Positions 18,289 through 46,694 are shown, counted from the stretch's first letter. The stretch is 64,000 nt of DNA from a virus (IMGVR_UViG_3300014205_000195:28184-92183), one strand, 5' to 3'. Notes: generated by a model not told the origin, from the letters alone. Made by a program: numbers and translations.

Positions 18289-18294
18289 GTGTCG

Positions 18295-19487: not shown

Positions 19488-19489
19488 AC

Positions 19490-20288: not shown

Positions 20289-20328
20289 CTCCCTAGAGGA
20301 ATCTCATGCCTACACCTCCCAGTTTATC

Positions 20329-20417: not shown

Positions 20418-20433
20418 GTACGACTCTATCATC

Positions 20434-20732: not shown

Positions 20733-20807
20733 TGGTGGACCGGCCGGGACTCGAACCCGGAACTCCTCGGTGCGAGCGAGGTGTTTTCCCATTAGCACTA
20801 CAGGCCC
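20733..20807 (-). tRNA. tRNA-Ala(CGC)
   Basis: anticodon loop CTCGCAC; G3:U70 wobble (Ala identity element) present; CCA encoded. Confidence 0.75.
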
Positions 20808-20819
20808 ATGCTGTTGCGT

Positions 20820-20894
20820 TGGTGGACCGGCCGGGACTCGAACCCGGAACTCCTCCATGCCATGGAGGCGTTTTCCCGTTGCTACTACAGGCCC
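20820..20894 (-). tRNA. tRNA-Ala(GGC)
   Basis: anticodon loop ATGGCAT; AC stem CCTCC/GGAGG; G3:U70; same 3' half as the neighbouring Ala tRNA; CCA encoded. Confidence 0.75.
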
Positions 20895-20905
20895 ACGCTG
20901 CTAGA

Positions 20906-21697
20906 TCAGTCGATGTCGGGCATGAGCCCGCGCGACTCGAGGTACTTGGCTGTCCGCTCGGCCTCGTCGACGGAGATGCCGGCCGCCGCGGCCACGAGGC
21001 TCGCATCGGTGGAACCGATGCTCGCGGAGGTGGCGACGTAGGACCTGGCGCTGTTGACGAGGCCCGCCGTGCTCGCCATGGTCATGTGCACGGAGTGCGA
21101 CGCCTGGTGGATGTCATCGACCGACATCGTCGTGTACTCGCCCTCGCAGGCCGTCGCCAGGTCCTTGAACCCAGCAACGTCGGAACCGATCGATATCACG
21201 CTCAGGCGCAACGATCCCTCGTTTATCGAGCGGGCGACGCCGCCGAGCGTTAGGCCGCACGGGCATCCCTGCGGGAACCCGTCGCCCCACTGACCCGCCA
21301 TCCCGTGCGGCGGCGCGTCGCCGACCAGCCACAGGCGCCGGTCCGCCTTCCTGCGCCACTTGAGGGAGACCGCCGCGTCCAGCCCGTCGAACACGGCCTC
21401 CGGCGCGTCGCCGCCGCCGCTCGCGAACATGCGACCGAGGGCCATCTTGAAGCCCTGCGTGTCCTTCCAGTCGGTGACATGCGTGACGAAGGACGAGTCC
21501 TGCGGCGGGTGATCGCGGTACGCAACGAGCGCGACCCTCAGATCGAGGCCGGCGTCCGTCGCCACCTCGTCGAGGATCCGCTTGATCTCGCGGCGAGCCT
21601 CATCGATGAACGGGCTCATGCTGCCCGTGCTGTCCACCACGAACGCAAGGTCTACCTTGCCGATGTCGTCTGTCACGTGTTTCCCGTCCTTGCCCAT
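20906..21697 (-). CDS. von Willebrand factor A (vWA) domain protein (about 263 aa)
   Basis: MIDAS motif DLAFVVDSTGSM near N-terminus; start trimmed to MGKDGKH (ATG 21697) since the ORF-track N-terminus overlaps tRNAs. Confidence 0.7.
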   Translation of the reverse strand: MGKDGKHVTDDIGKVDLAFVVDSTGSMSPFIDEARREIKRILDEVATDAGLDLRVALVAYRDHPPQDSSFVTHVTDWKDTQGFKMALGRMFASGGGDAPEAVFDGLDAAVSLKWRRKADRRLWLVGDAPPHGMAGQWGDGFPQGCPCGLTLGGVARSINEGSLRLSVISIGSDVAGFKDLATACEGEYTTMSVDDIHQASHSVHMTMASTAGLVNSARSYVATSASIGSTDASLVAAAAGISVDEAERTAKYLESRGLMPDID

Positions 21698-21721
21698 TGT
21701 GTCTACGCAAGCATACCGGGA

Positions 21722-21800
21722 TGCGCCCGCCCCGGAGTCGAACCGGTCCTTCCTCCGCAATGGAGGACGTGCTGCCGCAACACCTCTGCGAACTCTGGCC
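21722..21800 (-). other. tRNA-like element with T-arm (CCGG-TTCGACT-CCGG) but no clean acceptor pairing
   Basis: minus-strand reading; a CCTCC/GGAGG hairpin is present but no canonical anticodon loop. Confidence 0.25.
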
Positions 21801-21900
21801 GTGCAGCGCTGCCGCGCCGAGACGGGGGCCGTCGCCCGTCCAAGCCGGCGGGTGATCGGCCCGCCGGACCGGCGCCCGCGGAGCGCCGGCTTACATGCTA

Positions 21901-21977
21901 TGGTCCCCAGTACGGGATTCGAACCCGTGTTCTCTTGATTGACAATCAAGTATGTTGGGCCTCTACACCAACTGGAG
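21901..21977 (-). tRNA. tRNA-Asp(GTC)
   Basis: anticodon loop TTGTCAA; AC stem CTTGA/TCAAG; T-arm ACGGG-TTCGAAT-CCCGT; CCA encoded. Confidence 0.7.
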
Positions 21978-21981
21978 GTCT

Positions 21982-22066
21982 TGGTACCGGGGGAGGGAGT
22001 CGAACCCTCACGCTCGTGGAGCATCGCATTCTGAGTACGACGTGGCTGCCGTTACACCACCCCGGT
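21982..22066 (-). tRNA. tRNA-Leu(CAG) (class II)
   Basis: anticodon loop CTCAGAA; perfect acceptor ACCGGGG/CCCCGGT; variable-arm hairpin; CCA encoded. Confidence 0.75.
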
Positions 22067-22102
22067 GAGCGAGCGGCTGGACTGCCAGCCGCATCAATGC
22101 CT

Positions 22103-22187
22103 TGGTACCGTCGGCAGGGATCGAACCTGCTAGCGCGAACGCACCGGGTTTACAGTCCGGCTCCCAGTCCATTAGAGAATCAACGGC
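22103..22187 (-). tRNA. tRNA-Tyr(GTA) (class II)
   Basis: anticodon loop CTGTAAA; T-arm GCAGG-TTCGATC-CCTGC; variable arm GCGTTCGCGC; CCA encoded. Confidence 0.7.
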
Positions 22188-22231
22188 ATGGTGCCGGGCT
22201 ATTCAATGCGGTGCCCGGCGGAACGCTCCTT

Positions 22232-22307
22232 TGGCTGGTCGGGAGGGATTCGAACCCCCACCTTAGCGGGTAACAACCGCCCATCATACCTATTAGACCA
22301 CCGACCA
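22232..22307 (-). tRNA. tRNA-Asn(GTT)
   Basis: anticodon loop TTGTTAC; perfect acceptor TGGTCGG/CCGACCA; discriminator G; CCA encoded. Confidence 0.75.
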
Positions 22308-22310
22308 ATC

Positions 22311-22397
22311 TGGTACGGACGGGGGGAGTCGAACCCCCACCCCCTCTCGAGGACCGGACTCTCATTCCGGCGCGTCTGCCATTCCAGCCACGTCCGT
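22311..22397 (-). tRNA. tRNA-Leu(GAG) (class II)
   Basis: anticodon loop ATGAGAG; AC stem CCGGA/TCCGG; perfect acceptor ACGGACG/CGTCCGT; CCA encoded. Confidence 0.75.
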
Positions 22398-22778
22398 GCT
22401 TACCCTGCTCCTGAGCTTGAACTCGGCGAGCAGGATCTCCATCTCTCGTCGACCGACCAGCTCCTCGCCGGGACGGGTCAGCCCGAGCTCGAACAGGCGA
22501 CACGGCTTGTTGTCCCAACGGACGCACACGCCGCGGCCCCACCTGGCGTGCTTCATGTCGCACACCAGGCAACGATAATGCCCGTGGTGGCCGCAGTCGT
22601 CGCCAACCACCTTGACCGCTGCGTCGGTGTGGTGGACGAACCGCCCCATGCCGAGGTGCTCGGTCCAGCACACCTTGACGCCCAGCCTCGATGCACGACG
22701 CATCTTCCTTATCGTCGGGAGCGCCGCGACGGCGACCGCTACCGACGCCAGACAGACCACCATGATCGCCGTCAGCAT
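22362..22778 (-). CDS. hypothetical membrane/secreted protein (138 aa)
   Basis: ORF track; hydrophobic N-terminus; its 3' end overlaps tRNA-Leu(GAG) by about 35 nt so the true stop may differ. Confidence 0.4.
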   Translation of the reverse strand: MLTAIMVVCLASVAVAVAALPTIRKMRRASRLGVKVCWTEHLGMGRFVHHTDAAVKVVGDDCGHHGHYRCLVCDMKHARWGRGVCVRWDNKPCRLFELGLTRPGEELVGRREMEILLAEFKLRSRVSTDVAGMADAPE

Positions 22779-22779
22779 C

Positions 22780-22856
22780 TGGTACCCCCCGGGGGATTCG
22801 AACCCCCATCTCCACGGGTAAAAGCCGCGCGCTCTAGTCCGTTGAGCTAGGGAGGC
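22780..22856 (-). tRNA. tRNA-Lys(TTT)
   Basis: anticodon loop CTTTTAC; D-arm GCTC-AACGGACTA-GAGC; T-loop TTCGAAT; CCA encoded. Confidence 0.75.
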
Positions 22857-23043
22857 CCTTCTTGGCGGCCCAGGCCTCCTCGACCACGCGGTCGACGAGC
22901 TCCCTGGTTATCCTCGGGTTCTCGATGTGAAGGTTGCCCCAGACAAACGACTTGGCCTGCTCCTTCTTCATCTCGTCCGTCATCACGAACCCGCTGGCGC
23001 GGATGCGGTCCAGCATGGCCACTATGTCGTCGTTGCTTGGCAT
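22834..23043 (-). CDS. hypothetical small protein (about 69 aa, MPSNDDIVAMLDRIRASGF...)
   Basis: Trimmed from ORF track 22834..23181; start set at ATG 23043. Confidence 0.4.
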   Translation of the reverse strand: MPSNDDIVAMLDRIRASGFVMTDEMKKEQAKSFVWGNLHIENPRITRELVDRVVEEAWAAKKGLPSSTD

Positions 23044-23061
23044 CCGCCGCCTTTCTTTCTT

Positions 23062-23135
23062 TGGAGCAACCGGAGGGAGTTGAACCCTCGACCCGACCTT
23101 GGCAAGGTCGTGCGTTACCGCTACGCCACGGCTGC
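23062..23135 (-). tRNA. tRNA-Gly(GCC)
   Basis: CGACC-TTGCCAA-GGTCG anticodon arm (classic Gly-GCC arm); T-loop TTCAACT; discriminator U; CCA encoded. Confidence 0.8.
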
Positions 23136-23236
23136 GAGGTGGACCGCCATGGACGGTCCCGTTGGGCGCGTCGCCTACCATCCAACGCCCTTCAGGGGAG
23201 CCACATCGACCACTCCCCCAACCCGAAACGCCTTCT

Positions 23237-23314
23237 TGGTCTGGGTGGCAGGATTTGAACCCGCGACATCTCGGATCCGAACCGAGTACTCTGGCCAGGC
23301 TGAGCTACACCCAG
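23237..23314 (-). tRNA. tRNA-Pro(CGG)
   Basis: anticodon loop TTCGGAT; AC stem CTCGG/CCGAG; perfect acceptor CTGGGTG/CACCCAG; T-loop TTCAAAT; CCA encoded. Confidence 0.75.
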
Positions 23315-23319
23315 ACGAT

Positions 23320-23394
23320 TGGTCGGAACGACGGGATTCGAACCCGCGTCCTCCCGGTCCCAAACCGGGCGCGCGACCGCTGCGCTACATTCCG
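23320..23394 (-). tRNA. tRNA-Pro(TGG)
   Basis: anticodon loop TTTGGGA; AC stem CCCGG/CCGGG; T-loop TTCGAAT; CCA encoded. Confidence 0.75.
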
Positions 23395-23405
23395 ACTGAC
23401 TTGAT

Positions 23406-23483
23406 TGGTAACGGGGTCGAGAGTCGAACTCGATGATCTTCGGCTTATGAGGCCGACGAGACTTCCCTTTCTCCATCCCCGCA
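23406..23483 (-). tRNA. tRNA-Met(CAT)-like (third CAU tRNA; 1:72 mismatch)
   Basis: anticodon arm TCGGC-CTCATAA-GCCGA; T-arm TCGAG-TTCGACT-CTCGA; CCA encoded; the top acceptor pair is unpaired. Confidence 0.55.
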
Positions 23484-23587
23484 CCGCGGTGATCGCCGGT
23501 CGGATTCCCACCGACCGTCCGGGCCTGTGTTTCCCGGCGGTGGAGCGTGCGGCTTTACCCGCATGCCCTGTCGCCAGCGCACGTACC

Positions 23588-23603
23588 ACGCGTCGCGACG
23601 CGT
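23588..23603. repeat. perfect 16-bp palindrome ACGCGTCGCGACGCGT
   Basis: Sequence reads the same on both strands. Confidence 0.8.
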
Positions 23604-23620
23604 CGCGGCGATCGGCTCTT

Positions 23621-23697
23621 TGGTCTGGAAGGCGGGATTTGAACCCACGGCCCCTAGCCCCCCGAGCTAGTGCTCTACCAGGCTGAGCTACATCCAG
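23621..23697 (-). tRNA. tRNA-Pro(GGG)
   Basis: anticodon loop TCGGGGG (C33); AC stem CTAGC/GCTAG; T-loop TTCAAAT; CCA encoded; one acceptor mismatch. Confidence 0.65.
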
Positions 23698-23815
23698 ACG
23701 GGATTAGTAGTGGCGCGACCGACCACTCTCTCCCGGACCTTTCGTTGGCTTACCATGCGAGCACTCAAGGTGCCGATGGTCGGTCGCTTGCCAACATGAT
23801 ACCGGGGGACTGCTT

Positions 23816-23890
23816 TGGGGTGACCGGAGGGGCTCGAACCCTCGCCAGCTGAGTCACAATCAACCGTGCTGCCCTTACACCACGGTCACC
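23816..23890 (-). tRNA. tRNA-His(GTG)
   Basis: anticodon loop TTGTGAC; encoded extra 5' G(-1) opposite discriminator C (His hallmark); T-loop TTCGAGC; CCA encoded. Confidence 0.8.
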
Positions 23891-24050
23891 ATCCAGTGCC
23901 GGGCCTGACCCATCAGCCCAACCGCCCCGGCCTCCGCAGGTGATACCTACGCCAGGGTTCCCACCAACCGCCTCGTGAGGGCGGCGCCTTCGTCGGGACG
24001 GCGCGCTCTACCGCGGTGCGAACGCGGGAGCGCTGGCCGTCCTTCGTATA

Positions 24051-24125
24051 TGGTACCACGACCGGGAATCGAACCCGGGCCTCCGCCTTGAGAGGGCGGT
24101 GTCCTGGCCGCTAGACAATCGTGGC
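24051..24125 (-). tRNA. tRNA-Glu(CTC)
   Basis: anticodon loop CTCTCAA; AC stem CCGCC/GGCGG; T-arm CCGGG-TTCGATT-CCCGG; CCA encoded. Confidence 0.75.
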
Positions 24126-24128
24126 ACT

Positions 24129-24204
24129 TGGTAGCCCGTGCCGGATTCGAACCGGCGCCGTCCCGCTTGAAAGGCGGGCGTCCTGTCCGGTAGACGAACG
24201 GGCC
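24129..24204 (-). tRNA. tRNA-Glu(TTC)
   Basis: anticodon loop CTTTCAA; AC stem CCCGC/GCGGG; T-arm GCCGG-TTCGAAT-CCGGC; CCA encoded. Confidence 0.75.
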
Positions 24205-24361
24205 ACTTGTTCACTGCGGGCCGGGCTCGACACCGGCTTCCTTGTTTTCCCCGTTATAAGCGGGACATTCGGTATCCACCAACGGGCTAGCACGCGTTGG
24301 CGAAGGGGGAACCGCCTATCCAGCACCCCGCGTGTCCTTCCACGCTGCCGCAGTTCATTCT

Positions 24362-24437
24362 TGGTACCCCCGGCAGGACTCGAACCTGCGACCATCTCGT
24401 TAGGACCGAGCGACTCTATCCTCTGAGCTACGGAGGC
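24362..24437 (-). tRNA. tRNA-Arg(CCT)
   Basis: anticodon loop GTCCTAA; T-arm GCAGG-TTCGAGT-CCTGC; CCA encoded; one AC-stem mismatch. Confidence 0.65.
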
Positions 24438-24600
24438 ACTTCTTCATAAGGCCGGGCGACGAACTAAGCCGCCGCCCGGCCGAAGGCATACTATAAGGTT
24501 TCCCGCTTGGACTGGCCGCGACGCATCCTGTTGCGCCGCGACTCCTTGGTCGGATCGCATTACGCGGATATCGACCGGCGAACCGATCGACGTGTGTGTC

Positions 24601-24676
24601 TGGTACTCCAGGGGGGATTCGAACCCGCGACCTCCCAGATGTGAGCTGGGTGCTCTAGCCACTGAGCTACTGGAGT
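24601..24676 (-). tRNA. tRNA-Val(CAC)
   Basis: anticodon loop CTCACAT; AC stem CCCAG/CTGGG; perfect acceptor ACTCCAG/CTGGAGT; CCA encoded. Confidence 0.75.
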
Positions 24677-24838
24677 GCCTGGTCGTTAGACCCGCCTCCA
24701 GCGCTGCATGGGGGCGGGCTAGCCGGTCCTCGATGGCGTCCGACCTGCGGACTGTCCAAATACCGGCTCATACGATGGTAGGCGCGGGTCTGTGCGCTTA
24801 TTGCCTTGCATACTGCCTCTGCCTCCCATTGTGTTCTC

Positions 24839-24913
24839 TGGCACGGCCTGTAGGATTCGAACCCACATCGTCCGGGTTGGAGCCGGATGTCCTATCCGTT
24901 GAACGAAGTCCGC
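24839..24913 (-). tRNA. tRNA-Trp(CCA)
   Basis: anticodon loop CTCCAAC; AC stem TCCGG/CCGGA; T-loop TTCGAAT; CCA encoded; one acceptor mismatch. Confidence 0.65.
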
Positions 24914-24995: not shown

Positions 24996-25436
24996 TCAGG
25001 GGATTTTTTCGACGTACCCCGCGAACGTCCTGTTGAACAGGCAGTCCGGGCTCCGGCGCGCCCTGATGTACTCTACCAGCTCCGGCCCGCGCATCGGCGT
25101 CAGCCGAGCGAGGACCAGGGCGGTCACCAGGGATGAGCGGTTCAGCCCCGCTGCGCAGTGTACCAGGACGCGCGTCCCCGCCCTCACGGCAGCCGCCGTC
25201 CGGTCAGCCACGGCCGCGAGGGCCGCCTCGTCCGGGAGGACGTGGTCGTCGTCGAACTCCCACCTGACCTCAGTGAACGGCTGCAGGTCGCTGGGCACGT
25301 GCCTAATGGGGTCGTCGCCGCAGAGGTTCACGACGTAGCGTATCCCTCTGCGCCACACCTCCATCTCGTCGAACGGCGTGTCGAGCGAGCCGGACTGCCA
25401 CAGCTTGCCGGGGATGATCTCCGACAACATCACCAC
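24996..25436 (-). CDS. dual-specificity / tyrosine protein phosphatase
   Basis: Active-site signature VHCAAGLNRSS (HCxxGxxRS). Confidence 0.8.
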   Translation of the reverse strand: MVMLSEIIPGKLWQSGSLDTPFDEMEVWRRGIRYVVNLCGDDPIRHVPSDLQPFTEVRWEFDDDHVLPDEAALAAVADRTAAAVRAGTRVLVHCAAGLNRSSLVTALVLARLTPMRGPELVEYIRARRSPDCLFNRTFAGYVEKIP

Positions 25437-26885: not shown

Positions 26886-27869
26886 TCACCGGAGGCCGCC
26901 GTGCAGCGACGCGAGGACGTCCAGCCTCGCGTCTATTATTGACGCCTTCTCTGACTCGCTCAGCTTCACCTTCCCGACGCCATCGGAGCCGTGCGTGTTC
27001 ACCACGCGGGCGAGCACCGGCGCGAGCTGGTGGCGCTTCGCGAGCACCTCGCCGCAGGCGGCCAACACGTTCCGACGGATGACGTCGTTCCCACGGTAGT
27101 CGTCCGCCTCGACGCTCTCCGGGCTGCCTATCCCGAGCTGCTGCTCGAGCCCCGGCCAGGAGTTTCCCTTCAGGAGCTCCCACACGGACTCCTCGTCCGT
27201 CGGGTCGTCCCACCGTCCGGCGTTGTCTATCGCCCACAGCCTGTCGTTCTCTGGGTCCACGATGAAGTTCGCGCCGTGCCTGTCCCAGTTGCCCAGCATC
27301 AGATCCATGACGACCATGCGGCTGTAGTCCCTGACCATCGCCTCGCTGATCTCGCCGTCGTACATCTGGGCCAGTCTCGCCTTGCCGCCGAACCCGGCGT
27401 CGTCCACCCACCGCAGCGCCATGCCGTCGAACCGTTTCTCCTCCGTCAGCTGGTAGACGCCGGGATGGAGCCCCCACCCCATGATCTCGTCCAGCTGTTG
27501 CCACTGCAGCTCGCCAGCCCTGTCCACCTTGCTGGCCTTGATGAGCATCCTGCTGTCGGATAGGCCGGGGACAGGATCGAACGTCCCAGGCTTAGCGTAC
27601 GCGGTGGCGCACTTCCCGCGGTTCAGCGTGCCCTGCTGATCGGCGCACGTCCACGTGTCGTCAACCTTGACGATGTGACCGAAACCCATCCGACCGCCGC
27701 GAGCCAACGAACGGCCGGAGGCGGCTGGCTGCTGCTCTGCCGGCCTGCCTGCCGAGTCGGCGTCGTAGTAGAGCCCACCGCGCTCGCCCTGACGGACGGT
27801 CGCGCCAGGCGGCGCCGAGCCGGGCCTCCCGGTGACGTAGACTCGTCCCTTCTCGTAGATCTGGGTCAC
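26886..27869 (-). CDS. PI3/PI4-kinase-like atypical protein kinase (327 aa) with N-terminal RGGLYYDAD motif
   Basis: Catalytic-loop-like LGNWDRHGANFIV and metal-binding-like LWAIDNAG (DRHxxN / IDxG). Confidence 0.6.
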   Translation of the reverse strand: MTQIYEKGRVYVTGRPGSAPPGATVRQGERGGLYYDADSAGRPAEQQPAASGRSLARGGRMGFGHIVKVDDTWTCADQQGTLNRGKCATAYAKPGTFDPVPGLSDSRMLIKASKVDRAGELQWQQLDEIMGWGLHPGVYQLTEEKRFDGMALRWVDDAGFGGKARLAQMYDGEISEAMVRDYSRMVVMDLMLGNWDRHGANFIVDPENDRLWAIDNAGRWDDPTDEESVWELLKGNSWPGLEQQLGIGSPESVEADDYRGNDVIRRNVLAACGEVLAKRHQLAPVLARVVNTHGSDGVGKVKLSESEKASIIDARLDVLASLHGGLR

Positions 27870-36973: not shown

Positions 36974-37255
36974 TCAGGCGCCTATACGGTCAGCCTGCAG
37001 CGGGCCCAGCTTGACCAGCGTCATCTCAAACACGTCGCCCGGCAGCGGGCTCTCGTCCGCCCGGCAGACGAAGACCACTGTCGAGTCGCCCCTGGCAGTC
37101 ACCTGCACGAGCTGCTCAGACTGGGCCACGGTGCCCTGCGTCGGGACCACCAGCGCGACGTTGCTGACCTGGACCTTCGTCTTGATCATATCTCCACCGT
37201 CTCCAGCGACGCCGGATCCACCGGAACGGCCATCGCCCTCATCGCGGCGTGGCAC
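36974..37255 (-). CDS. hypothetical protein (93 aa)
   Basis: ORF track. Confidence 0.35.
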   Translation of the reverse strand: MPRRDEGDGRSGGSGVAGDGGDMIKTKVQVSNVALVVPTQGTVAQSEQLVQVTARGDSTVVFVCRADESPLPGDVFEMTLVKLGPLQADRIGA

Positions 37256-37782
37256 TTCTGCAGGTGCTCCGCCTGTGTTATGGCATCGAACAGCGCGGTG
37301 TGTCCATCCGCACGGTCGTCCGCCCGCGGCAGTTTCATGCCGACGCGCCTGAACACCGTCCTGGTGTCATTCACGTCCCAGAACTTCCACGGCGCCTTGA
37401 GCCCGAGCCGCTCGTAGCACTCCGAGATCAACGGCACGTCGAACGTGGCACCGTGCGACCACACGCAGCTGCCGTACCGAGTCACGCTCGAGTACCACTC
37501 GGTGAATGCGGTCAGCACGTCCGTCACCGGCACCGGCGGCGGGTCCATCAAGCTCTGCCTGGCCACATCCGGTCTGGACAGCCACCACATCACCGTGTCG
37601 CCGCTCACCCTGAGCCCTAGGTCTATGCAGCTCTGCAGGTCAACGTTCCTATGGAACACCTTCTTGCCGTCCTTCGGTACCGATGACCCGTCAGGGTCGA
37701 ACGCCACGGCACCTATGGACACGAACGCCGCGTCCCCCCGGGTCGACATGGTCTCCAAGTCGACCATCACATCCACAACCAT
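37186..37782 (-). CDS. DnaQ-like DEDDh 3'-5' exonuclease (198 aa)
   Basis: VDLETMS (Exo I), HGATFD (Exo II), H...D (Exo III); paralogue of 10911..11486. Confidence 0.65.
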   Translation of the reverse strand: MVVDVMVDLETMSTRGDAAFVSIGAVAFDPDGSSVPKDGKKVFHRNVDLQSCIDLGLRVSGDTVMWWLSRPDVARQSLMDPPPVPVTDVLTAFTEWYSSVTRYGSCVWSHGATFDVPLISECYERLGLKAPWKFWDVNDTRTVFRRVGMKLPRADDRADGHTALFDAITQAEHLQKCHAAMRAMAVPVDPASLETVEI

Positions 37783-38277: not shown

Positions 38278-38868
38278 TTATGCGTGCCGTCCCAACAGCC
38301 TCATGTACCGGGTCAGCGCGACTATGGACTTGGCGTCTGCCACGCGGCCACCGTCTATGGCCGCCCACACCTCGTCCAGCCCGAGCCAGTGCATCGAGAC
38401 GCCCTCGCCGTGATCCTGCGGCAACGGGTCGCGCGTCAGCCCGGCGCAGTGGAAGATGGTTATCCGTTCGTTGCTGTACCCGGGCGACATGAGCAACGGC
38501 CGCCCCAGCCTGGTCAGCATGGACGGTCTCAGCCCGCACTCTTCGCGCAGCTCGCGCGCCGCCGCTTCGAAGTCCGTCTCACCGTCGTCCACGCGGCCGG
38601 CCGGCACCTCGTATGTCAGGTTCTCCACCGCGTGCCTGTACTGCGACACCAGCGCCACGCGGCCGTCGTCTGTCGCCACCATGGCGACCGTCCGTGGACG
38701 CTCGACCACCGAGCGCACCTGCTCGACGCCATCCACGATCACCACGTCGTCCCTCACCGGGACGAACCCGGTGAGAAGGTACTTGCTGCTCACGGGAGTG
38801 ACTGCGATGCGCCTGCTCCAGTTCATGGTCACAGCGCCGCCGCGAGGCGGACCTCGCCGAAGCTCCAC
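38278..38868 (-). CDS. Nudix hydrolase, ADP-ribose pyrophosphatase-like
   Basis: Nudix box GRVDDGETDFEAAARELREECG; 196 aa. Confidence 0.75.
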   Translation of the reverse strand: MELRRGPPRGGAVTMNWSRRIAVTPVSSKYLLTGFVPVRDDVVIVDGVEQVRSVVERPRTVAMVATDDGRVALVSQYRHAVENLTYEVPAGRVDDGETDFEAAARELREECGLRPSMLTRLGRPLLMSPGYSNERITIFHCAGLTRDPLPQDHGEGVSMHWLGLDEVWAAIDGGRVADAKSIVALTRYMRLLGRHA

Positions 38869-40259
38869 TCGCGAAGCAGCTCGCCGTCACGGAACACCTC
38901 CACGAGGTGGTTGCCCAAGGCGTCCGCCTTCGACTCGCTGACCGTCTTGAACGCGTTGCCGCTGGCGATCAGCCCCAGCCTGCCCTCCTTGGAGTTCTTG
39001 GACGGCATGCCGATGGGATGCTTGGAGACGCCCCGTCGCTCGCCGTTCACCGTGATCTCCGAGCACTTGATGGCGAACTGGATGGTGTCGCGGTTCACGT
39101 CGCGCAGCAGACCGCCGCCGGACCCGAACGCGATGTTGTCGAGCGACCATCGCGCATCGGCCACGGCCTGCATGATCCCGACGATGGACCGCCTGTTGAT
39201 GCCGTCGCCCTGGATCACCCTGATCTGCGGCGGCAGGACCCTGTACCCGGCGCCGTTCACGGTGAACCCGAACGCATCGCCCAGGATGCCAAGGACCTCG
39301 ACCACCACCTTCGCCGGCTCTCCGCTGTCAGGCCTCACGACCACGGTCCCGTTCCTCGAACGGACCGCATCCTTGAGCGAACCGCCCCACAGGTCGCGGC
39401 AGGCGTCGTAGATGTTGTAGCTGTCGCTGACGACCGCCACCATGCCTGTCGGGAACTGCTGCAACATGTTCCTGAAGGCGTCGCCCTCGTAAGCGCGGCC
39501 CCAGCTCGTGATGGTCGAGTGCTCCGCCGCGGGGATGCTGTGTCCAGGGTTGTCGGCCCCGTAGTAGGCGATGGCCAGCTCCATGCCGAGGTAGTTGTCG
39601 CTGCCGCTGAAGTTCACCAGGTGGGCGGCGCCGCCGAGGGCGGCCTCCTCCGGGCACGACACTCCGCGCGCGCCGAAGTCGTGGAGCCTGTAATCGGAGT
39701 ATGGGTCCGCGCCGGTCATCCTGGCGAACCTCACGATGTCAGCCTTCTGGGAACGCGACTGGCTGGCCACCGAGGTTGGGTACCAGACGTTGCTCAGGAG
39801 GGTCTCGATGTAGTTGGTCACCCACGGCATGGTCGGGTCGGTGTTCACGACGGAGAACAGCACGTTGCTCGGACCGATGACGGTGCCCTCCGGAACGGCC
39901 TTGATGCTCACCGGCCACCGGCCACCGTGCTTGCTCACTATCCGCTCCAGCCCGGCGCGGTTGTACACGAGCCCGTTCCCGCCGTGGACGGCGGCGACGC
40001 GGTCAGCCATGTACTCGACATCGTCGCTCGTCACCTGCTGGCCGACCAGGTACTCCTTCAGGAAGTACTGCAAACCGAAGAACACGATCGGGAAGTCAGA
40101 CCCGCGGGACTCGGCGTACGAGTACACCTCCTCGGTGTTCGGCGGGTAGCCGAGCCAGTGCCCTGACTTGTAGCTGTCCGTCCGCGCGATCCCACCGCCC
40201 CTGATCAAGCTGAGTGCCATGCCCGCGCCTCCTGCGCCAGTTTCGGAGACGGGCCGCAT
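38829..40259 (-). CDS. nadV: nicotinamide phosphoribosyltransferase (NAMPT/NadV)
   Basis: 476 aa; type II phosphoribosyltransferase architecture and motif set typical of NadV. Confidence 0.8.
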   Translation of the reverse strand: MRPVSETGAGGAGMALSLIRGGGIARTDSYKSGHWLGYPPNTEEVYSYAESRGSDFPIVFFGLQYFLKEYLVGQQVTSDDVEYMADRVAAVHGGNGLVYNRAGLERIVSKHGGRWPVSIKAVPEGTVIGPSNVLFSVVNTDPTMPWVTNYIETLLSNVWYPTSVASQSRSQKADIVRFARMTGADPYSDYRLHDFGARGVSCPEEAALGGAAHLVNFSGSDNYLGMELAIAYYGADNPGHSIPAAEHSTITSWGRAYEGDAFRNMLQQFPTGMVAVVSDSYNIYDACRDLWGGSLKDAVRSRNGTVVVRPDSGEPAKVVVEVLGILGDAFGFTVNGAGYRVLPPQIRVIQGDGINRRSIVGIMQAVADARWSLDNIAFGSGGGLLRDVNRDTIQFAIKCSEITVNGERRGVSKHPIGMPSKNSKEGRLGLIASGNAFKTVSESKADALGNHLVEVFRDGELLREWSFGEVRLAAAL

Positions 40260-40299
40260 CTCTGCGGCCCGTCAGGTACATGCTACCGGGCCGACGGCC

Positions 40300-41286
40300 C
40301 TACTTCGCCGGCGTCAGGAACGACGACGGGTCGAGGATGAAGCCCTGCCCAGACGGGACGAGGGCGATGGTGACGTTGTCAGCGAGCTTCTCGATGGCGC
40401 GGTTCTGGAGGATCTGTGGGGTGAGCGACGAGTCCACGATGCGGTTCGCGTCGGCCTCGCCCTGCGCCTCGATGACCTGCGCCTCTGCCCGGCCGTTCGC
40501 CTGGGCGACCAGCTGCTGCGCTTCGAACTCGCGCTGCTTCACCACTTCCTGGGCGCGGAGCGCTTCCTGGGTCGCGACCTGCTTCTGCTCGATGCTGTCG
40601 TTGAAGGCCGCCGAGTAGGAGATGTTGTCGATCTGGAGCGAGTTCACGGCGATCGAGTACGGGGCGAGCTCCTCGCCGAGCCGGCGCGTGACGACCTCGC
40701 GGATCTCGTCGCGCTTCTGCGTGACCTCGATCGCGTTGTACTGGACGGTCTCGTCCTTGAAGTACTGGTTGACACGGCTGAGGACGAGGATGTTGAAGTA
40801 GTCCGGCCCGACGTTGCGGAACAGGTCCTGCACGCGATTCGCGCTGATGGAGTAGTTGAGTGTGACCGTGAAGTTGACGTCCTGCGTCTCCGACGACGCG
40901 GCCGCGATGTTCTCGAACTTGAACGCCTGGATCTGGACGTTGGCGTTCTTGACGTTCTGCCATGGCGCGGTCAGGTTGAGGCCCTCATCGCGCTGGCCGA
41001 CGATCGATCCGAACTGGTACACGACCCCGACGTGGCCGGCAGGGACCGCATGGACGGAGCTGATGACGGTCATCAGCAGCCAGACGCCGGCCATGAAGCC
41101 GGCGACGCCGGCGAGGATCCGCCCAACGATGAGCGAGTCCTTGCTGGGCTGCCTGGTGCCGTAGCGGGACTCTGAGGAGGCGGCCGCAGCCAGCGCCTTG
41201 TGGTACGCGCCGAGAAATCGGCGCCTGATCTCCAGGCTGCCAACGCCGACGATGCCCAGGAGAATTGTCATCACTAACCAGAACAT
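40300..41286 (-). CDS. SPFH/band-7 (prohibitin/HflK-like) membrane protein
   Basis: N-terminal TM helix followed by SPFH domain and coiled-coil-like Ala/Gln/Glu-rich C-terminus. Confidence 0.75.
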   Translation of the reverse strand: MFWLVMTILLGIVGVGSLEIRRRFLGAYHKALAAAASSESRYGTRQPSKDSLIVGRILAGVAGFMAGVWLLMTVISSVHAVPAGHVGVVYQFGSIVGQRDEGLNLTAPWQNVKNANVQIQAFKFENIAAASSETQDVNFTVTLNYSISANRVQDLFRNVGPDYFNILVLSRVNQYFKDETVQYNAIEVTQKRDEIREVVTRRLGEELAPYSIAVNSLQIDNISYSAAFNDSIEQKQVATQEALRAQEVVKQREFEAQQLVAQANGRAEAQVIEAQGEADANRIVDSSLTPQILQNRAIEKLADNVTIALVPSGQGFILDPSSFLTPAK

Positions 41287-41338
41287 GGGACTCCTTTTGC
41301 CTCTGTGCTTTGAGTACTGTTTGAATGATACCTGGAAG

Positions 41339-41848
41339 CTAGGCCTCGACCGACCTCAGGCTCACCAGCAGGTCAACGACCGCCCGGTCGGCGATCTGTT
41401 CCATGATGTCGAGGCGATCGCCGTGGAAGAGGTACTCGTTGCACCTGACCTCGCGGAACGAATGGGCGATCGCGATGAAGCTCAGCCCCGCAGGCTTGGT
41501 CGACCTGGCGCCCGGGCGCTTGTACGAGAGGCTGCTCTCCGCGAGGCACACGTCGACCTTCGACCGGTCCCTCGCCCACATGGCCATCAGGCGCGTGGTG
41601 TCTGCGCTCACGGCGCCCATCTGGACGATGGCCTCCTCGCTGATGCCGGTGTGCTCGACCTTCGAGCGGTTGGAGTAGGCGACAACGCCGCCGTCGAACC
41701 AGGCTGACGCGCCGTTCACCGACACCAGCCGGCTGCTGATGAGGCCGCCGGCCGCCGTCTCAACGACGCAGATCTTCAGACCCCTGTCGGTCAGGATCCG
41801 ACCGATCTCCTGCAGACTCGTGTTGATGCTGACGGTATGAGCGTTCAA
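41339..41848 (-). CDS. CinA C-terminal-domain / PncC-like NMN amidohydrolase
   Basis: 169 aa; VVETAAGGLISSRL matches the ESCTGG signature of CinA/PncC. Confidence 0.65.
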   Translation of the reverse strand: MNAHTVSINTSLQEIGRILTDRGLKICVVETAAGGLISSRLVSVNGASAWFDGGVVAYSNRSKVEHTGISEEAIVQMGAVSADTTRLMAMWARDRSKVDVCLAESSLSYKRPGARSTKPAGLSFIAIAHSFREVRCNEYLFHGDRLDIMEQIADRAVVDLLVSLRSVEA

Positions 41849-41973: not shown

Positions 41974-42879
41974 CTAGAAGTCCCCGTCCGCCACCTGCAG
42001 GCAGGTGAGCCCGAGCGATCTCCAGAGCTGGACGACCTGGTTCCGGTCGTCCAGGACGAACCGGATGTTGTACTTGCCGCGGATGTGGGCGTCGAAGATC
42101 TCGGCCTTCACGACCGCGTCCTTCCGGCTGTCGCCCGTCCTCCGCATGTGGAGCGTGTAGTCCTTGATGGCAGCCGGCCCCTCGATGAACTCGACGGTCT
42201 GGTCGCGGTAGAGGCTCTCGCGCCCGGAGACGAAGATGATGTCGGTATCCCCTGAGAACCGCTTCAGCATGTGCCTCACTGGCCTGTTGGGGACGTCCAG
42301 GTGCGCGGTCGACGCGTTGTACGGGCTCCTGTGGTTGAGCTCGCAGGCGCACCCGTGCTCCTTGCAGAACAGGGCCAGCGTCCCGTCGAGGTCGCAGATG
42401 ATCGCCCACCGAAGGCCGGGCGTGTGCGCGTACTGCTCGAGCCTCCACGGCTCGCCGTAGTAGCGCCGAGCCATGTCTCTGATGACGGCCTCGCCGACCG
42501 GCCTGGCCCGCCGCGAGTCCCGCTCGATGGCGTCCTCAACGTCGACGTCCATCGTCTTGATCTCGACGCGGACGCCGAATACGTTGGCCAGCTCGTACAG
42601 GCGGCGCAGGTGCCGGTCCTCGAGGTTCGTGTCGTCCACGATGACCGAGCGGCCGGCCACGAGCGCCTCCGTGATCAGCCGGTCGCGCTCCGGCTCGACC
42701 TCGGACTTCTCGCGGTGCTTGTTCCAGCGGCCACTGTCCGGGCCGAGGCCGAGCCGCTCGCGGATATCGTCCTTGTTCACGCGGGTCCAGACGTCCGGGT
42801 CGCTGGCCTCGATGGCCCTGGCGAGGGTCGACTTGCCGGAGGCCGGCAGCCCGCGCATGATGGTCATGGTCTGCCTCAA
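41974..42879 (-). CDS. pnk: polynucleotide 5'-kinase / 3'-phosphatase (T4 Pnk-like: P-loop kinase + HAD phosphatase)
   Basis: Walker A GLPASGKST; C-terminal HAD motif I ICDLDGTL. Confidence 0.8.
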   Translation of the reverse strand: MRQTMTIMRGLPASGKSTLARAIEASDPDVWTRVNKDDIRERLGLGPDSGRWNKHREKSEVEPERDRLITEALVAGRSVIVDDTNLEDRHLRRLYELANVFGVRVEIKTMDVDVEDAIERDSRRARPVGEAVIRDMARRYYGEPWRLEQYAHTPGLRWAIICDLDGTLALFCKEHGCACELNHRSPYNASTAHLDVPNRPVRHMLKRFSGDTDIIFVSGRESLYRDQTVEFIEGPAAIKDYTLHMRRTGDSRKDAVVKAEIFDAHIRGKYNIRFVLDDRNQVVQLWRSLGLTCLQVADGDF

Positions 42880-43682
42880 AACAGGTTCCTCCTCACCTCG
42901 ATGATGAAATCGTTGACGGGCTCGACCTCGGTCGCCTTGCGGTCCGCCTCGCGGTACGTCCTGTCGAGCCGACGGGCGTAGTCGTCGGTGATCCTGATGA
43001 TCTCGTGCGGCTGCAGCGGGACGTCAAACGTCTCCGAGCTCAGCCCGGCCTTCCACGCCCTGAGCACGCTCTCGATGTCCGAGCCGACCACGCTCATGCT
43101 GAACGAGCCCGTGCGGATGAGCTCCTCGGCAATGTAGAGCGTGCGGAGCCACGCGACCGCGTACTTGTTGTAGCGCCCGTCCTTGTTGTCAAGCATCTTC
43201 GTGCGCTGATTGAACCCGTAGCCGCGGAAGGCGCTGTAGACGCCCTCGGTGCTCCAGACGTGCTCGAACAGGCCAAGCAGGCGCAACGTGTAGCCGGTGG
43301 CCGTCCACGAGTCGTCGTTCGACGAGACCGGCGACTTGAACGCCTCCAGGACGGACGGGTTTGACTTGCACGCCAGGAACAGGAAGTGCCCGAGCTCCCA
43401 CGACGTGTCGTCGACGGCCCCCTCGATCCACTGGCTGTTCCCGACCCTCGGCCGCTGCCCGTTCTCGGGGAGGACGAAGAAGTCCCTGGTGCGGGCGGCG
43501 TAGACGCCGCGGTAGTCGATGTCTGACGCCGGAGTCGCCAGCCCGTGGGCGTGGCTCCCGACGATGGTCTTGAGCAGAATCACTGTCCATCCTCCAACCC
43601 GTGGTAGTGCATGCCGTCCCACTCGTCCAGCCTCACGATCGGCTCGCCGTACTGGACTGGCGCAGGACGGCAGTCCTGCCAC
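42876..43682 (-). CDS. Pol-beta-superfamily nucleotidyltransferase
   Basis: GSHAHGLATPASDIDYRGVY (hG[GS]...D[IV]D motif); 268 aa. Confidence 0.6.
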   Translation of the reverse strand: MAGLPSCASPVRRADREAGRVGRHALPRVGGWTVILLKTIVGSHAHGLATPASDIDYRGVYAARTRDFFVLPENGQRPRVGNSQWIEGAVDDTSWELGHFLFLACKSNPSVLEAFKSPVSSNDDSWTATGYTLRLLGLFEHVWSTEGVYSAFRGYGFNQRTKMLDNKDGRYNKYAVAWLRTLYIAEELIRTGSFSMSVVGSDIESVLRAWKAGLSSETFDVPLQPHEIIRITDDYARRLDRTYREADRKATEVEPVNDFIIEVRRNLF

Positions 43683-44737
43683 ACCTTCTCGGTGCTCTTA
43701 CCGTCAAGCAGCAGCATGACGAGGCCCGGGTGCTTCGTTGCCTTGGCCTGCTCGGCTATCCAGCGGCGATCGTCGCCGCCCGGCCGCCTGGCCAGGATGT
43801 CCCTAAGGTCGACGGCCGCGGCCGCCAGCCTCTCGTCGTACCAGCCACGTATGGTGGCCTCCGTCGTCTCGACCCAGTCGACGAACCAGGCAGGCGCCTC
43901 GTGCCGGATGGAGTCGGCGTAGCCGTCGACGCCGCCGCGCATCGCGCGCCATATGGTCGCCGCGTTCGTGTCGAACACGTGCTTGTTCGCGATCAGGTAG
44001 TCGTCGAACTTCACCTTCAGCTTCAGGCCTGAGCCGGTGTACCTGATGACGAAGCCCTCCCTGTTCGGCTCCTGGAGGAGCTTCAGGTGGAGCGGGTTCT
44101 CGTCCGAGCCGGCGATGCCGAAGAACTCGGGGAGGTGCGGCCACTGGTCGTCGCGCGGCGGGAACTCCTGGCCGGTCGCCTTGTCGACGGTGCCGAGCAG
44201 GACTAGCCTCTCCTCGTCGTAGCGCACGACGGACGGGTTCTCCGGGTACACGATCTCGAAGACGTAGGTGACGTCCCTGTCGATGGACGGCCACAGGCCG
44301 GCGTACTGCGAGCGCAGGAGCCGGTTGGCGACCGCCGACTGCTTCGTGCGGAAGCTGCGCCGCGTGGCGACGTACGGCTCGTCGTCCATCCAGTACATCA
44401 CGCCGAGCGAGCCGTCGACCTTCTCCCACACCTCGTACGGGCCGGTCGGCAGCGGGCCCATGTGCTCCTCGTAATCGAAGAACTTCCCGAATGGGCGGGC
44501 CACGACGTTGCCGACGCCGTCCGTCACCAGGCCGCGGCACATGAGCGTCACGCGGTCCCACTGCCTGGAGTTGACGGCCAGGCTGGAGTAGCACCACGAG
44601 CTTAGGTCGGTCCGCGGATGCCGGCCGCGGTCGAGCAGGCCCCTGGAATGGTAGTCCTCGAGCTCGGCGATGTCGACGCGGGGCACGGCGCGATGGAGGG
44701 CCATCCCGGTCTCTTCCTTGGTTCTCATCTTGGCCAT
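43580..44737 (-). CDS. ATP-dependent RNA ligase (Rnl-family)
   Basis: Nucleotidyltransferase motif I EKVDGS (KxDG); 385 aa; adjacent to pnk. Confidence 0.7.
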   Translation of the reverse strand: MAKMRTKEETGMALHRAVPRVDIAELEDYHSRGLLDRGRHPRTDLSSWCYSSLAVNSRQWDRVTLMCRGLVTDGVGNVVARPFGKFFDYEEHMGPLPTGPYEVWEKVDGSLGVMYWMDDEPYVATRRSFRTKQSAVANRLLRSQYAGLWPSIDRDVTYVFEIVYPENPSVVRYDEERLVLLGTVDKATGQEFPPRDDQWPHLPEFFGIAGSDENPLHLKLLQEPNREGFVIRYTGSGLKLKVKFDDYLIANKHVFDTNAATIWRAMRGGVDGYADSIRHEAPAWFVDWVETTEATIRGWYDERLAAAAVDLRDILARRPGGDDRRWIAEQAKATKHPGLVMLLLDGKSTEKVWQDCRPAPVQYGEPIVRLDEWDGMHYHGLEDGQ

Positions 44738-44778: not shown

Positions 44779-45228
44779 CTATACCTCTTCTTTATCGAAA
44801 CGTACACGGCCGTCGGTCGCCCACTCGACGTACCGCCTGAGCTCCTTGTCGGCCACGTCCTCCACCAGATCGCCGGAGACGAACATCCTGTAGCTATCGG
44901 AGGCGTACCTCCCGACGCCGGGCAGCGACCTGACGTCCCCTGACCCGTCCCACGAGCAAAGCGCGGCAGACATCTTCACGATGAGCGCGGCCCTCCGGTT
45001 CTGGAGGCCGAGCGTCCGTATGAAGTCCGCCATCTCGTCCACGTCGGCGCTCGCCGCGGCGCTCGCCGTCGGCCACCTGACGAAGAAGTCCCATATGATG
45101 GGCCTGACCTGCTTGATGCTCGTCTGGTTCAGCATCATGCACGCCACCAGCAACCGCCACGGGTTGCCCCTCAGCTCCTCCTGGATGAGGCAGTACGGGG
45201 AGACGTCCAGCGGCGTGAGCACTGGCAC
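44779..45228 (-). CDS. HhH-GPD DNA glycosylase resembling the MBD4 / Mig-type mismatch (T/U/5hmU:G) glycosylase domain
   Basis: PWRLLVACMMLNQTSIKQ...IRTLGLQNRRAALIVKMS...LPGVGRYASDSYRMF parallels the MBD4 glycosylase core (PWKLLIATIFLNRTS...LGLYDLRAKTIVKFS...LHGIGKYGNDSYRIF). Confidence 0.6.
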   Translation of the reverse strand: MPVLTPLDVSPYCLIQEELRGNPWRLLVACMMLNQTSIKQVRPIIWDFFVRWPTASAAASADVDEMADFIRTLGLQNRRAALIVKMSAALCSWDGSGDVRSLPGVGRYASDSYRMFVSGDLVEDVADKELRRYVEWATDGRVRFDKEEV

Positions 45229-46076: not shown

Positions 46077-46694
46077 TTAGATGCCCCGCACGTACTTCAA
46101 ATCATGCCGCCACCGGCCCACGTCCGTCAACGCGTCGTGGATGGCTGCCATGTCCTCCGTGATCTGCACAAACCGGCTGAGCGCCTGCATGATGCCCTCT
46201 ATCACAGTGGGCGTGTAGTCAGGGTCGTCCACCAGGAGCGCCCTGTACGCCGGGCGGAGCGCCTGTCGGAGGGTTATCCTCTCCGCGCCGACGGTGTTGT
46301 CTATGGCGGCCACGCGACCGTCCGCGGTCACCAGCCAGTTGTTGGAGTGCCTGTCGCTGTTGCCGACAACGTAGTCCATGACGACCATGTTGGCGATGTC
46401 CAGGATCGCCCGTTCAGACGACCTGACCGCCATGTATAGGTCCGGGCCGAGCTCGTCGGCGGTCCTGCCATCGACGAACATCTGGGCGGATCTGTGCTCG
46501 TCGTACTGGACGGTCAGCGGGACTATCCCGTCGAACACGGCTGCCGCGACCGCGTACGCCGCCACCTCGTCGTGCCCGTCCCGAAGAACCCACCTGTTGC
46601 CGAGCACGTCCGTCGCTATCCTGATGCCCGACAGCCCAGGCCTCACCTCCCCGGCGTTCGGCTCCCTGACTGACACGAACCACCCGTTATCCAC
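46077..46694 (-). CDS. PI3/PI4-kinase-like atypical protein kinase (205 aa), paralogue of 26886..27869
   Basis: VGNSDRHSNNWLV ... AAIDN motifs. Confidence 0.55.
   Translation of the reverse strand: MDNGWFVSVREPNAGEVRPGLSGIRIATDVLGNRWVLRDGHDEVAAYAVAAAVFDGIVPLTVQYDEHRSAQMFVDGRTADELGPDLYMAVRSSERAILDIANMVVMDYVVGNSDRHSNNWLVTADGRVAAIDNTVGAERITLRQALRPAYRALLVDDPDYTPTVIEGIMQALSRFVQITEDMAAIHDALTDVGRWRHDLKYVRGI

Follow-up and report, generated by a model that had tools for sequence, protein, structure and literature searches.

An Rnl1–RlaP–Pnkp operon with a probable role in RNA repair in an uncultured high-GC phage

We found that a 64,000-nucleotide stretch of viral DNA (IMGVR_UViG_3300014205_000195:28184-92183; hereafter the window, meaning that whole stretch) carries at positions 41974..44737 an operon of three RNA-repair genes. 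In order, they encode an Rnl1-family RNA ligase, a nucleotidyltransferase of the RNA-ligase-associated Pol-beta (RlaP) family, and a T4-type polynucleotide kinase-phosphatase (Pnkp). Their catalytic residues are intact, and the block of genes is conserved in divergent viral relatives. The operon probably (at a rough probability of 0.75) specifies heal-fill-seal repair of broken RNA, above all of tRNAs that abortive-infection nucleases of the host have cut in the anticodon loop. The likely substrates and the proposed aim of countering host defence are drawn from the T4 paradigm and from RlaP biochemistry, and the order of reactions given below is likewise our proposal.

Three coupled genes of RNA repair

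The three genes of the operon are as follows.

43580..44737, minus strand: gene 1, Rnl1-family ATP-dependent RNA ligase, 385 amino acids (PF09511, PHROG 562, T4 Rnl1 fold)
42876..43583, minus strand: gene 2, RlaP nucleotidyltransferase, 235 amino acids (PF10127)
41974..42879, minus strand: gene 3, T4-type polynucleotide 5'-kinase/3'-phosphatase, 301 amino acids, or 297 from the ATG (PF13671, PF25109)

These open reading frames (ORFs) are adjacent to one another, with third-codon-position G+C (GC3) of 0.88-0.96. The stop of the ligase gene overlaps the start of the RlaP gene in GTGA, the stop of the RlaP gene overlaps the start of the Pnkp gene in TTGA, and a Shine-Dalgarno motif lies ahead of each ORF; the three genes therefore form a translationally coupled operon. 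A scan for promoters and terminators around the operon found nothing over shuffled expectation. A sequence-only reading of this DNA had proposed three adjacent repair genes at 41974..44737, and profile searches agree, as the families exceed their Pfam gathering scores and PHROGs returns the same assignments.

The ligase matched PF09511 (RNA_lig_T4_1) at 52.7 bits against a gathering cut-off of 28.3, and matched PHROG 562, a family named 'RNA ligase and tail fiber protein attachment catalyst', over its full length at 1.3e-45. A sequence search of the PDB returned T4 Rnl1 entries only (2c5u, 1.4e-7), and the most similar ligases of GenBank phages, mainly Streptomyces and Arthrobacter phages, are 30-35% identical. 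Ligase motifs I (K106VDGS), III (FE161IV), IV (E227G228FV) and V (K239LK241VK243) align with the motifs of T4 Rnl1, whose active-site lysine is K99, backed by the title of PDB entry 5tt6 ('K99M'). Ten residues of the phage ligase (R68, K85, K106, D108, G109, E161, E227, G228, K241 and K243) are invariant across 32 homologues. Its ATG start at 44737 is preceded at 7 nucleotides by the Shine-Dalgarno sequence GGAGG.

An AlphaFold2 model of the ligase (predicted local distance difference test score, pLDDT, 89.7) has a helical C-terminal domain at residues 245-355; an all-helical domain at this end is particular to Rnl1. The top Foldseek match of the model was T4 Rnl1 2c5u (E 3.4e-17 over 377 columns), followed by the ligase domain of fungal Trl1, then by Rnl3, Rnl5 and Rnl2, with DNA ligases last (E of at least 5e-4, partial matches only). 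The global template modelling (TM) score of the model to T4 Rnl1 was only 0.50, which most likely reflects the orientation of the domains. A DNA ligase, the identity that the sequence-only reading had set against its own call of an Rnl-family RNA ligase, is rejected, since the PDB sequence matches are to T4 Rnl1 only and the fold search ranks DNA ligases far down; by both sequence and fold, the enzyme resembles T4 Rnl1.

The second gene scored 79 bits with PF10127 (cut-off 23), its sole Pfam match, and PHROGs returned a nucleotidyltransferase (4.6e-19). Its start is the GTG at 43583, which is preceded by GGAGG, and the 235-residue product was called by two independent metagenome gene callers. 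The longest ORF, beginning at 43682, was rejected as the start because it would overlap the ligase gene by 103 nucleotides, and the GTG at 43583 has both the GTGA overlap and GGAGG. All 87 homologues (87/87) carry PF10127, and identities, found to other metagenomic proteins only, range from 37 to 56%; the protein falls in a phage clade. Residues G9, S10, D21, D23 and D58 are invariant across 25 homologues (alignment A1) and correspond to the hG[GS] motif, the DxD motif and a third aspartate. PMC12776372 (Carruthers, Fatma & Huang, bioRxiv December 2025) states that an RlaP requires this Pol-beta nucleotidyltransferase (NTase) signature, hG[GS], and three strictly conserved catalytic aspartates.

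The AlphaFold2 model of the phage RlaP (pLDDT 93) places a beta/alpha NTase core in residues 1-83, followed by helices through 97-233, of which 220-233 is the terminal one. Compared by description only, this layout fits the published account of PfRlaP, an NTase domain joined to a helical domain whose terminal helix packs back. The closest solved structures in a fold search were KNTase/ANT(4') (E 1e-4) and HalB of the Hailong system (TM 0.42-0.50), a resemblance at superfamily level. Sequence searches of the PDB, with the single sequence and with a profile, gave no useful match in a copy of the database that apparently lacks PfRlaP. The sequence-only reading was right to call a Pol-beta-type nucleotidyltransferase; it had left the role of the gene open between a CCA-adding enzyme, a minimal NTase or something else, and instead the gene is clearly a PF10127 RlaP, a published family with biochemistry (PMC12776372). 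A CCA-adding enzyme is rejected because the gene has no match to the PolyA_pol/CCA family (PF01743) and because CCA is encoded in 39/39 of the tRNA genes in the window, and a minimal NTase is rejected because RlaP is the sole Pfam match and the predicted fold has two domains.

As cited in PMC7824862 and PMC12776372, Burroughs & Aravind 2016 predicted the RlaP family and named it for its link to RNA ligase genes, and its members were expected to act together with RNA ligases. In jumbo phages, RlaP is the most prevalent end-restoring NTase and its distribution mirrors that of RNA ligases (PMC7824862; Iyer et al. 2021), and the same authors predict that it restores nucleotides taken off by RloC-type nucleases. 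The two Pseudomonas enzymes studied in PMC12776372, PfRlaP and PaRlaP, come from rtcB-rlaP-rtcA operons. They act on RNA only, require a 3'-OH, prefer Mn2+ and add one or two nucleoside monophosphates (1-2 NMP); a role against RloC-type nucleases has been proposed. Given a mimic of a cleaved tRNA, they prefer its 5' half, and they prefer the 3' end at an anticodon break over the acceptor 3' end; aminoacylation of a tRNA without one anticodon-loop nucleotide was partly rescued by RlaP. The product suits 5'-phosphate ligases and not RtcB. The same work identifies T4 NrdC.11 as an RlaP homologue (PMC12776372).

The third gene scored 82 bits with PF13671 and 147 bits with PF25109, the latter over positions 3-143 of the 143 in the profile (3-143/143), and PHROG 505, polynucleotide kinase, at 5.7e-80. 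End-to-end alignments were obtained in the PDB with Capnocytophaga Pnkp1 (4xrp, 2.4e-39) and T4 Pnkp (1ltq, 1.8e-35). In the kinase domain, the P-loop G10LPASGKS17, D37, R40 and R123/R124 align with the T4 residues, which we take to be K15, S16, D35, R38 and R126. The phosphatase domain has D163-L-D165-G-T, SGRE218, RKD252 and DDR277; in T4 Pnkp the phosphatase intermediate forms on Asp165 (PMC3592404). With these motifs intact, both Pfam domains present and the T4 protein aligned over its full length, the call of a T4-like Pnkp in the sequence-only reading holds. The start that we favour is a TTG behind GGAGGA, and an ATG 12 nucleotides downstream is the alternative.

In the pathway that we propose, the C-terminal DxDGT phosphatase of Pnkp would convert a 2',3'-cyclic phosphate or 3'-phosphate to a 3'-OH, and its N-terminal P-loop kinase would phosphorylate the 5'-OH. 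RlaP would then fill in where a nucleotide had been excised, and the Rnl1-type ligase, adenylylated on Lys106, would join the 3'-OH to the 5'-phosphate. Such a pathway would be chemically coherent because the partner is a 5'-phosphate ligase, Pnkp would supply the 3'-OH, and RlaP needs a 3'-OH and leaves one.

The T4 Pnkp (PseT)/Rnl1 (gp63) pathway, which reverses PrrC cleavage of tRNA-Lys, uses the same two-domain Pnkp and the same heal-and-seal chemistry. The phage ligase belongs to the same family as T4 Rnl1, its best match in both sequence and fold, and shares motifs I, III, IV and V and the helical C-terminal domain with it at about 22% identity. Unlike T4, the phage has its RlaP gene between the ligase and Pnkp genes and coupled to both, whereas the T4 homologue NrdC.11 presumably lies at a separate locus on the T4 map. 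The resemblance to the Pseudomonas RlaPs extends to PF10127, the three invariant aspartates, an RNA ligase neighbour and, with a predicted model set against a published description, probably also an NTase domain followed by a helical C-terminal part that closes in one last helix. The phage partners differ, being a 5'-phosphate Rnl1 and Pnkp rather than RtcB and RtcA, which removes the 3'-end incompatibility with RtcB. Kinase, phosphatase and ligase cooperate alike in the bacterial Pnkp1-Rnl-Hen1 and Pnkp/Hen1 systems, and Pnkp1 is the best PDB match of the phage Pnkp; unlike in Pnkp1-Rnl-Hen1, the phage ligase is of Rnl1 type, and the scanned ORFs of the window gave no Hen1 methyltransferase.

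Conservation and neighbours of the operon

Two further genes are conserved neighbours of the operon.

44779..45228, minus strand: HhH-GPD glycosylase-like gene, conserved upstream neighbour of the ligase gene (PF00730, 3.6e-9)
37186..37782, minus strand: Rv2179c-like 3'-5' exoribonuclease gene, conserved downstream neighbour of the operon (PF16473, 4.3e-39)

Three divergent relatives (L011, L012 and L013; one contig each of 165 kb, 26 kb and 7 kb) have these genes in the same order, HhH-GPD, Rnl1, RlaP, Pnkp, and the ligases of these relatives are the closest homologues of the phage ligase, at 41-44% identity. The exact order Rnl1, RlaP, Pnkp occurs again in L019, L024 and L052. The Rv2179c-like gene has the same relative position in L011, L012 and L052, and in the 165-kb and 7-kb relatives it lies one or two genes past Pnkp. 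A weaker match to the same exoribonuclease family (PF16473) is found elsewhere in the window, at 10911..11486 on the minus strand.

Between Pnkp and a RuvC-like gene with the exoribonuclease gene, the window carries a block of genes for salvage and turnover of nicotinamide adenine dinucleotide (NAD+) at 38278..41848 on the minus strand, which comprises NUDIX, NAMPT, an SPFH/Band-7 membrane protein and a CinA/PncC deamidase of nicotinamide mononucleotide. The NAMPT matched NCBIfam PRK09198 at 518.6 bits against a cut-off of 405. This block is absent at that position in L011 and L012. An AAA_28 (NadR-kinase-like) ORF lies apart from it, at 9920..10507.

We scanned IMG/VR for RlaP genes; the single protein as query returned one weak locus, and an alignment as query returned 41 loci. 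Pnkp and/or ligase genes lie within 6 kb of RlaP in 22 of the 41, and both do so in 12 of the 41. Some other RlaP relatives are solitary, or stand beside a Fic gene or a lone phosphatase. Among GenBank phages, MW202692.1 has nucleotidyltransferase, ligase and polynucleotide kinase genes as neighbours, Gordonia phage SpeedDemon has a nucleotidyltransferase next to an RNA ligase, Streptomyces phage GiJojo has a nucleotidyltransferase and a kinase, and Arthrobacter phage Bauer has a ligase and a kinase.

Some loci carry two ligases. An unrelated viral contig of 97 kb (logan:SRR21686418_357694) has, at 1727..6202, an Rnl2-like ligase, RlaP, two small ORFs, Rnl1 and Pnkp. Rnl1, an Rnl2-like ligase, RlaP and Pnkp also lie within a few kb of one another in L024 and L044, and likewise, more spread out, in L027.

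The tRNA island and the wider phage context

Several other genes and domains of the window bear on RNA metabolism or on the nature of the phage.

8624..24913, minus strand: tRNA island of 39 tRNA genes with interspersed protein genes (ARAGORN)
16769..17458, minus strand: Thg1-like protein (TLP) of the bacterial type, a 3'-5' templated polymerase, 229 amino acids (PF04446)
13280..14794, minus strand: Ro60/TROVE-like RNA-binding protein with a vWA domain (PF05731 TROVE, 67 bits against a cut-off of 23)
12345..12950, minus strand: truncated class-I release-factor-like protein with a GGQ motif, starting at TTG 12950 or GTG 12854
18295..19185, minus strand: 5-hydroxymethyldeoxyuridine (5-hmdU) DNA kinase, among the tRNA genes (match at 8.1e-54)
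11443..12087, minus strand: nucleoside 2-deoxyribosyltransferase-like gene, scattered amid the tRNA genes
24996..25436, minus strand: dual-specificity phosphatase-like gene, scattered amid the tRNA genes
5151..5465, minus strand: 2H phosphoesterase (LigT/CPDase-like) domain (PF13563, 1.3e-11, residues 845-949 of its ORF)

The sequence-only reading had put the tRNA complement at about 40, close to the 39 that ARAGORN counts. These cover all 20 amino acids; the Rfam tRNA model confirms 37 of the 39 at its gathering score, and every one has an encoded CCA end. The gene for tRNA-His (23816..23889) is preceded at 23890 by an encoded G-1 that faces C73. Nearly every acceptor stem is paired throughout; a 1:72 mismatch occurs in two Met tRNAs only, and there is none at positions 2/3. 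A G1:U72 wobble tops the acceptor stem in 9 of the 39, and several tRNAs start with U, A or C and not G. Two of the three tRNAs with a CAU anticodon are mismatched at 1:72, as C1xU72 in 12050..12123 and U1xU72 in 23406..23483.

The TLP gene matched PF04446 at 99.7 bits against 29.2, and PHROG 4717, tRNA-His guanylyltransferase, at 6.5e-67. Its nearest PDB match is the TLP of Bacillus thuringiensis (BtTLP, 4kgk; 2e-43, residues 3-181); other matches, to structures of eukaryotic Thg1 and archaeal TLP, are much weaker, from 7e-13 to 1.7e-5. Residues R30, D32, K45, D77 and E78 correspond to R28, D30, K43, D75 and E76 of BtTLP, and the metal carboxylates, the activation lysine and the triphosphate-binding arginines of the bacterial enzyme are conserved; unlike the bacterial TLP, this one is phage-encoded and sits among 39 tRNA genes. 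A longer ORF reaching 17533 was set aside, as it would overlap tRNA-Arg (17482..17556). Among GenBank phage records, 164 contain a TLP homologue, usually under the name tRNA-His guanylyltransferase.

Bacterial TLPs carry out templated 5'-end repair and are regarded as a 5'-end quality control (PMC3701042). We assign the phage protein, on its sequence, to this bacterial type, a predicted templated 5'-end repair enzyme rather than a G-1-adding Thg1. The earlier call of a Thg1-like 3'-5' polymerase inside the tRNA island stands as to family (PF04446) and location, with the type now refined. Non-templated addition of G-1 to tRNA-His is rejected since G-1 is encoded, the tRNA has C73 and not A73, and a bacterial TLP is the nearest relative; tRNA 5' editing as a required function is rejected since nearly all acceptor stems are paired. 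The encoded G-1 and the paired stems therefore leave neither activity needed. The TLP would instead rebuild missing 5' nucleotides of tRNA acceptor stems with the 3' strand as template, separately from the operon. The 39 phage tRNAs could serve as a replacement supply and, together with the TLP, form lines of defence parallel to it.

The Ro60 gene, also named in the sequence-only reading, is supported by a TROVE domain plus a vWA match at 13280..14794; the vWA_Ro60 model scored 25.8 bits against a cut-off of 27.7, and the Rsr equivalog model gave a weak match only. Directly upstream of its start, at 14815..14922 on the minus strand, there is a sub-threshold match to the full length of the Rfam YrlA (Y RNA-like) family, which scored 28.7 bits where the gathering score is 69 (E 2.9e-4 within 401 nucleotides). 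Modules resembling a T-arm and a D-arm are present, the candidate terminates in CCA, and its minimum free energy is no better than that of shuffles (z +0.63); it is a weak candidate for a partner RNA of Ro60.

Just downstream of Ro60, between two tRNA-Met genes and a tRNA-Ile gene, lies the release-factor-like ORF. It has the PF00472 RF-1 domain (1.7e-23) and a tail of PCRF, and its N-terminal domains are absent. The RF-1 domain with its GGQ motif agrees with the PrfH-like gene of the sequence-only reading, but the match to PrfH itself (NCBIfam TIGR03072) reached 73.3 bits, short of its cut-off of 166.65, RF1 is closer in its C-terminal half (1.5e-48), and no match to RtcB (PF01139) was found among the window ORFs scanned. 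The protein is possibly a peptidyl-tRNA hydrolase for ribosome rescue.

The 2H phosphoesterase domain has both HxT motifs (H847-V-T and H938-M-T) and forms the C-terminus of a 988-residue ORF (5031..7997, minus strand). This ORF is an unusual fusion of a prohead-protease-like N-terminus (Peptidase_S78, a weak match), NUDIX, DUF5661 and the 2H domain. Packaging of its enzymes in the capsid is one possibility; another is that the 2H domain contributes to RNA repair as a cyclic phosphodiesterase.

The G+C content of the window is 66%, and nearly all genes are on the minus strand. Its parent is a metagenomic contig of 107,438 bp (ena:ERZ27247358:k141_1647009), and the Logan assembly from SRR6484325 has the contig too. 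A portal-like gene, RecA, a primase, a DnaB-like helicase, ribonucleotide reductase and a prohead-protease-like domain identify it, by sequence, as a large tailed phage. A megablast search of the region against GenBank phages gave zero DNA-level matches; the phage thus appears new at the DNA level, a result that is silent on function, and its sequence places it in an uncultured high-GC lineage far from any sequenced phage. The 5-hmdU DNA kinase suggests that the phage DNA contains hypermodified thymidine. Short significant matches to the catalytic-loop region of PI3/PI4 kinases were seen in 46077..46694 (4.4e-10) and 26886..27869 (5.8e-6), both on the minus strand. The first of these ORFs adjoins the portal-like gene; in L011 and L013 that place is taken by an ORF of equal size (205 amino acids).

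Weighing heal-fill-seal repair against other roles

Several points weigh against reading the operon as tRNA repair in defence of the phage. The ligase scored 41.9 bits in the NCBIfam equivalog model for T4 RnlA (TIGR02308), failing its cut-off of 242.25; because it falls so far under that threshold, it is by sequence a divergent relative of Rnl1 whose T4 RnlA-like function and tRNA specificity are putative. Addition by RlaP is non-templated, so that most filled products carry the wrong base, as the authors of PMC12776372 themselves state. In 19 of the 41 viral RlaP loci there is no ligase or Pnkp within 6 kb, and RlaP is therefore not strictly tied to repair cassettes. The TLP lies 24.5 kb from the operon and is linked to it by theme only.

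The enzymes could instead maintain the RNA of the phage itself, maturing and quality-controlling its 39 tRNAs, with RlaP and TLP tidying 3' and 5' ends and the ligase and Pnkp mending processing accidents. The TLP does lie inside the tRNA island and belongs to a type that acts in 5'-end quality control in bacteria (PMC3701042), and the island also holds Ro60, described as part of an RNA-repair ribonucleoprotein platform (PMC7824862). However, all 39 tRNAs encode CCA, nearly all acceptor stems are paired, so that 5' editing is not needed, and tRNA-His encodes G-1; the operon is outside the island; and RlaP in vitro prefers an anticodon break to an acceptor 3' end (PMC12776372). We consider such upkeep unlikely. 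A role on DNA ends, at 3'-phosphate breaks arising as a hypermodified genome replicates, or outside repair altogether, in tail-fibre attachment as for T4 gp63, is quite improbable. T4 Pnkp acts on DNA ends too, an HhH-GPD glycosylase-like gene lies upstream in L011-L013 and a RuvC-like gene is nearby, the 5-hmdU DNA kinase points to modified DNA, and the name of PHROG 562 includes a tail fiber protein attachment catalyst. Against this, the ligase groups by sequence and fold with T4 Rnl1 and the fungal tRNA ligase and not with DNA ligases, RlaP does not use DNA acceptors (PMC12776372), and the association of ligase, RlaP and Pnkp is a signature of RNA repair cassettes (PMC7824862, PMC12776372).

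The identity of the middle enzyme bears on the same question. Its nearest solved folds are KNTase/ANT(4') and HalB, and the active-site mutant of HalB, D21A/D23A, falls at the same positions as D21 and D23 of the phage protein (PMC13434031). Oligo-dA made by HalB inhibits the HalA effector (PMC13434031), and, as a HalB-like oligodeoxyadenylate synthase, the phage enzyme could hold the Hailong channel of a host shut; within the KNTase fold it might otherwise be a CCA-adding enzyme or an adenylyltransferase of the aminoglycoside type. Yet identity to HalB and ANT is 10-16% with TM of at most 0.5, and both single-sequence and profile searches miss the two. RlaP is the sole Pfam match, well over threshold, with no PolyA_pol/CCA match, and in several lineages the gene sits between those for ligase and Pnkp and is translationally coupled to them. 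We regard any of these other enzymes as highly improbable, and heal-fill-seal repair remains the reading that we prefer.

An extension of heal-fill-seal repair takes in the conserved neighbours. HhH-GPD, Rnl1, RlaP, Pnkp and the Rv2179c-like exoribonuclease may form an iterative trim-fill-seal cycle, in which the exoribonuclease would clip off ragged or misadded 3' nucleotides, RlaP would refill the end, and Rnl1 would seal normal anticodon loops only. We offer this as speculation that is unlikely to hold; if true, it would give a non-templated polymerase effective proofreading against base-excising RloC-type nucleases.

The components all belong to described families, and both the association of RlaP with ligase and kinase-phosphatase and the arsenal of tRNAs, Thg1 and Ro have been published, so that the phage does not present a new kind of system. 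The arsenals catalogued in jumbo phages share with it many tRNAs, ATP-grasp RNA ligases, polynucleotide kinase and phosphoesterases, RlaP and Thg1, as well as a Ro/TROVE protein, a 2H phosphoesterase and NAD+ salvage genes (PMC7824862). Unlike in that catalogue, the core genes here form one coupled operon, and the phage is seen as a possibly incomplete 107-kb contig. The view of the sequence-only reading that this is a heavier investment than the classic T4 pair of Pnk and Rnl was overstated, given these catalogued arsenals (PMC7824862) and the RlaP homologue NrdC.11 in T4 itself.

RlaP has been characterised only lately, and only from RtcB operons, where its 3'-OH product is a chemical mismatch for the partner ligase (authors of PMC12776372). 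The phage operon is a compact, coupled and conserved Rnl1-RlaP-Pnkp unit in which every step of the proposed pathway would be chemically compatible, and, as a natural system, it is convenient for reconstituting heal-fill-seal repair and for asking whether RlaP counters nucleotide-excising nucleases. With it, RNA-repair arsenals accompanied by full tRNA sets now extend to an unsampled, uncultured lineage of high-GC phages.

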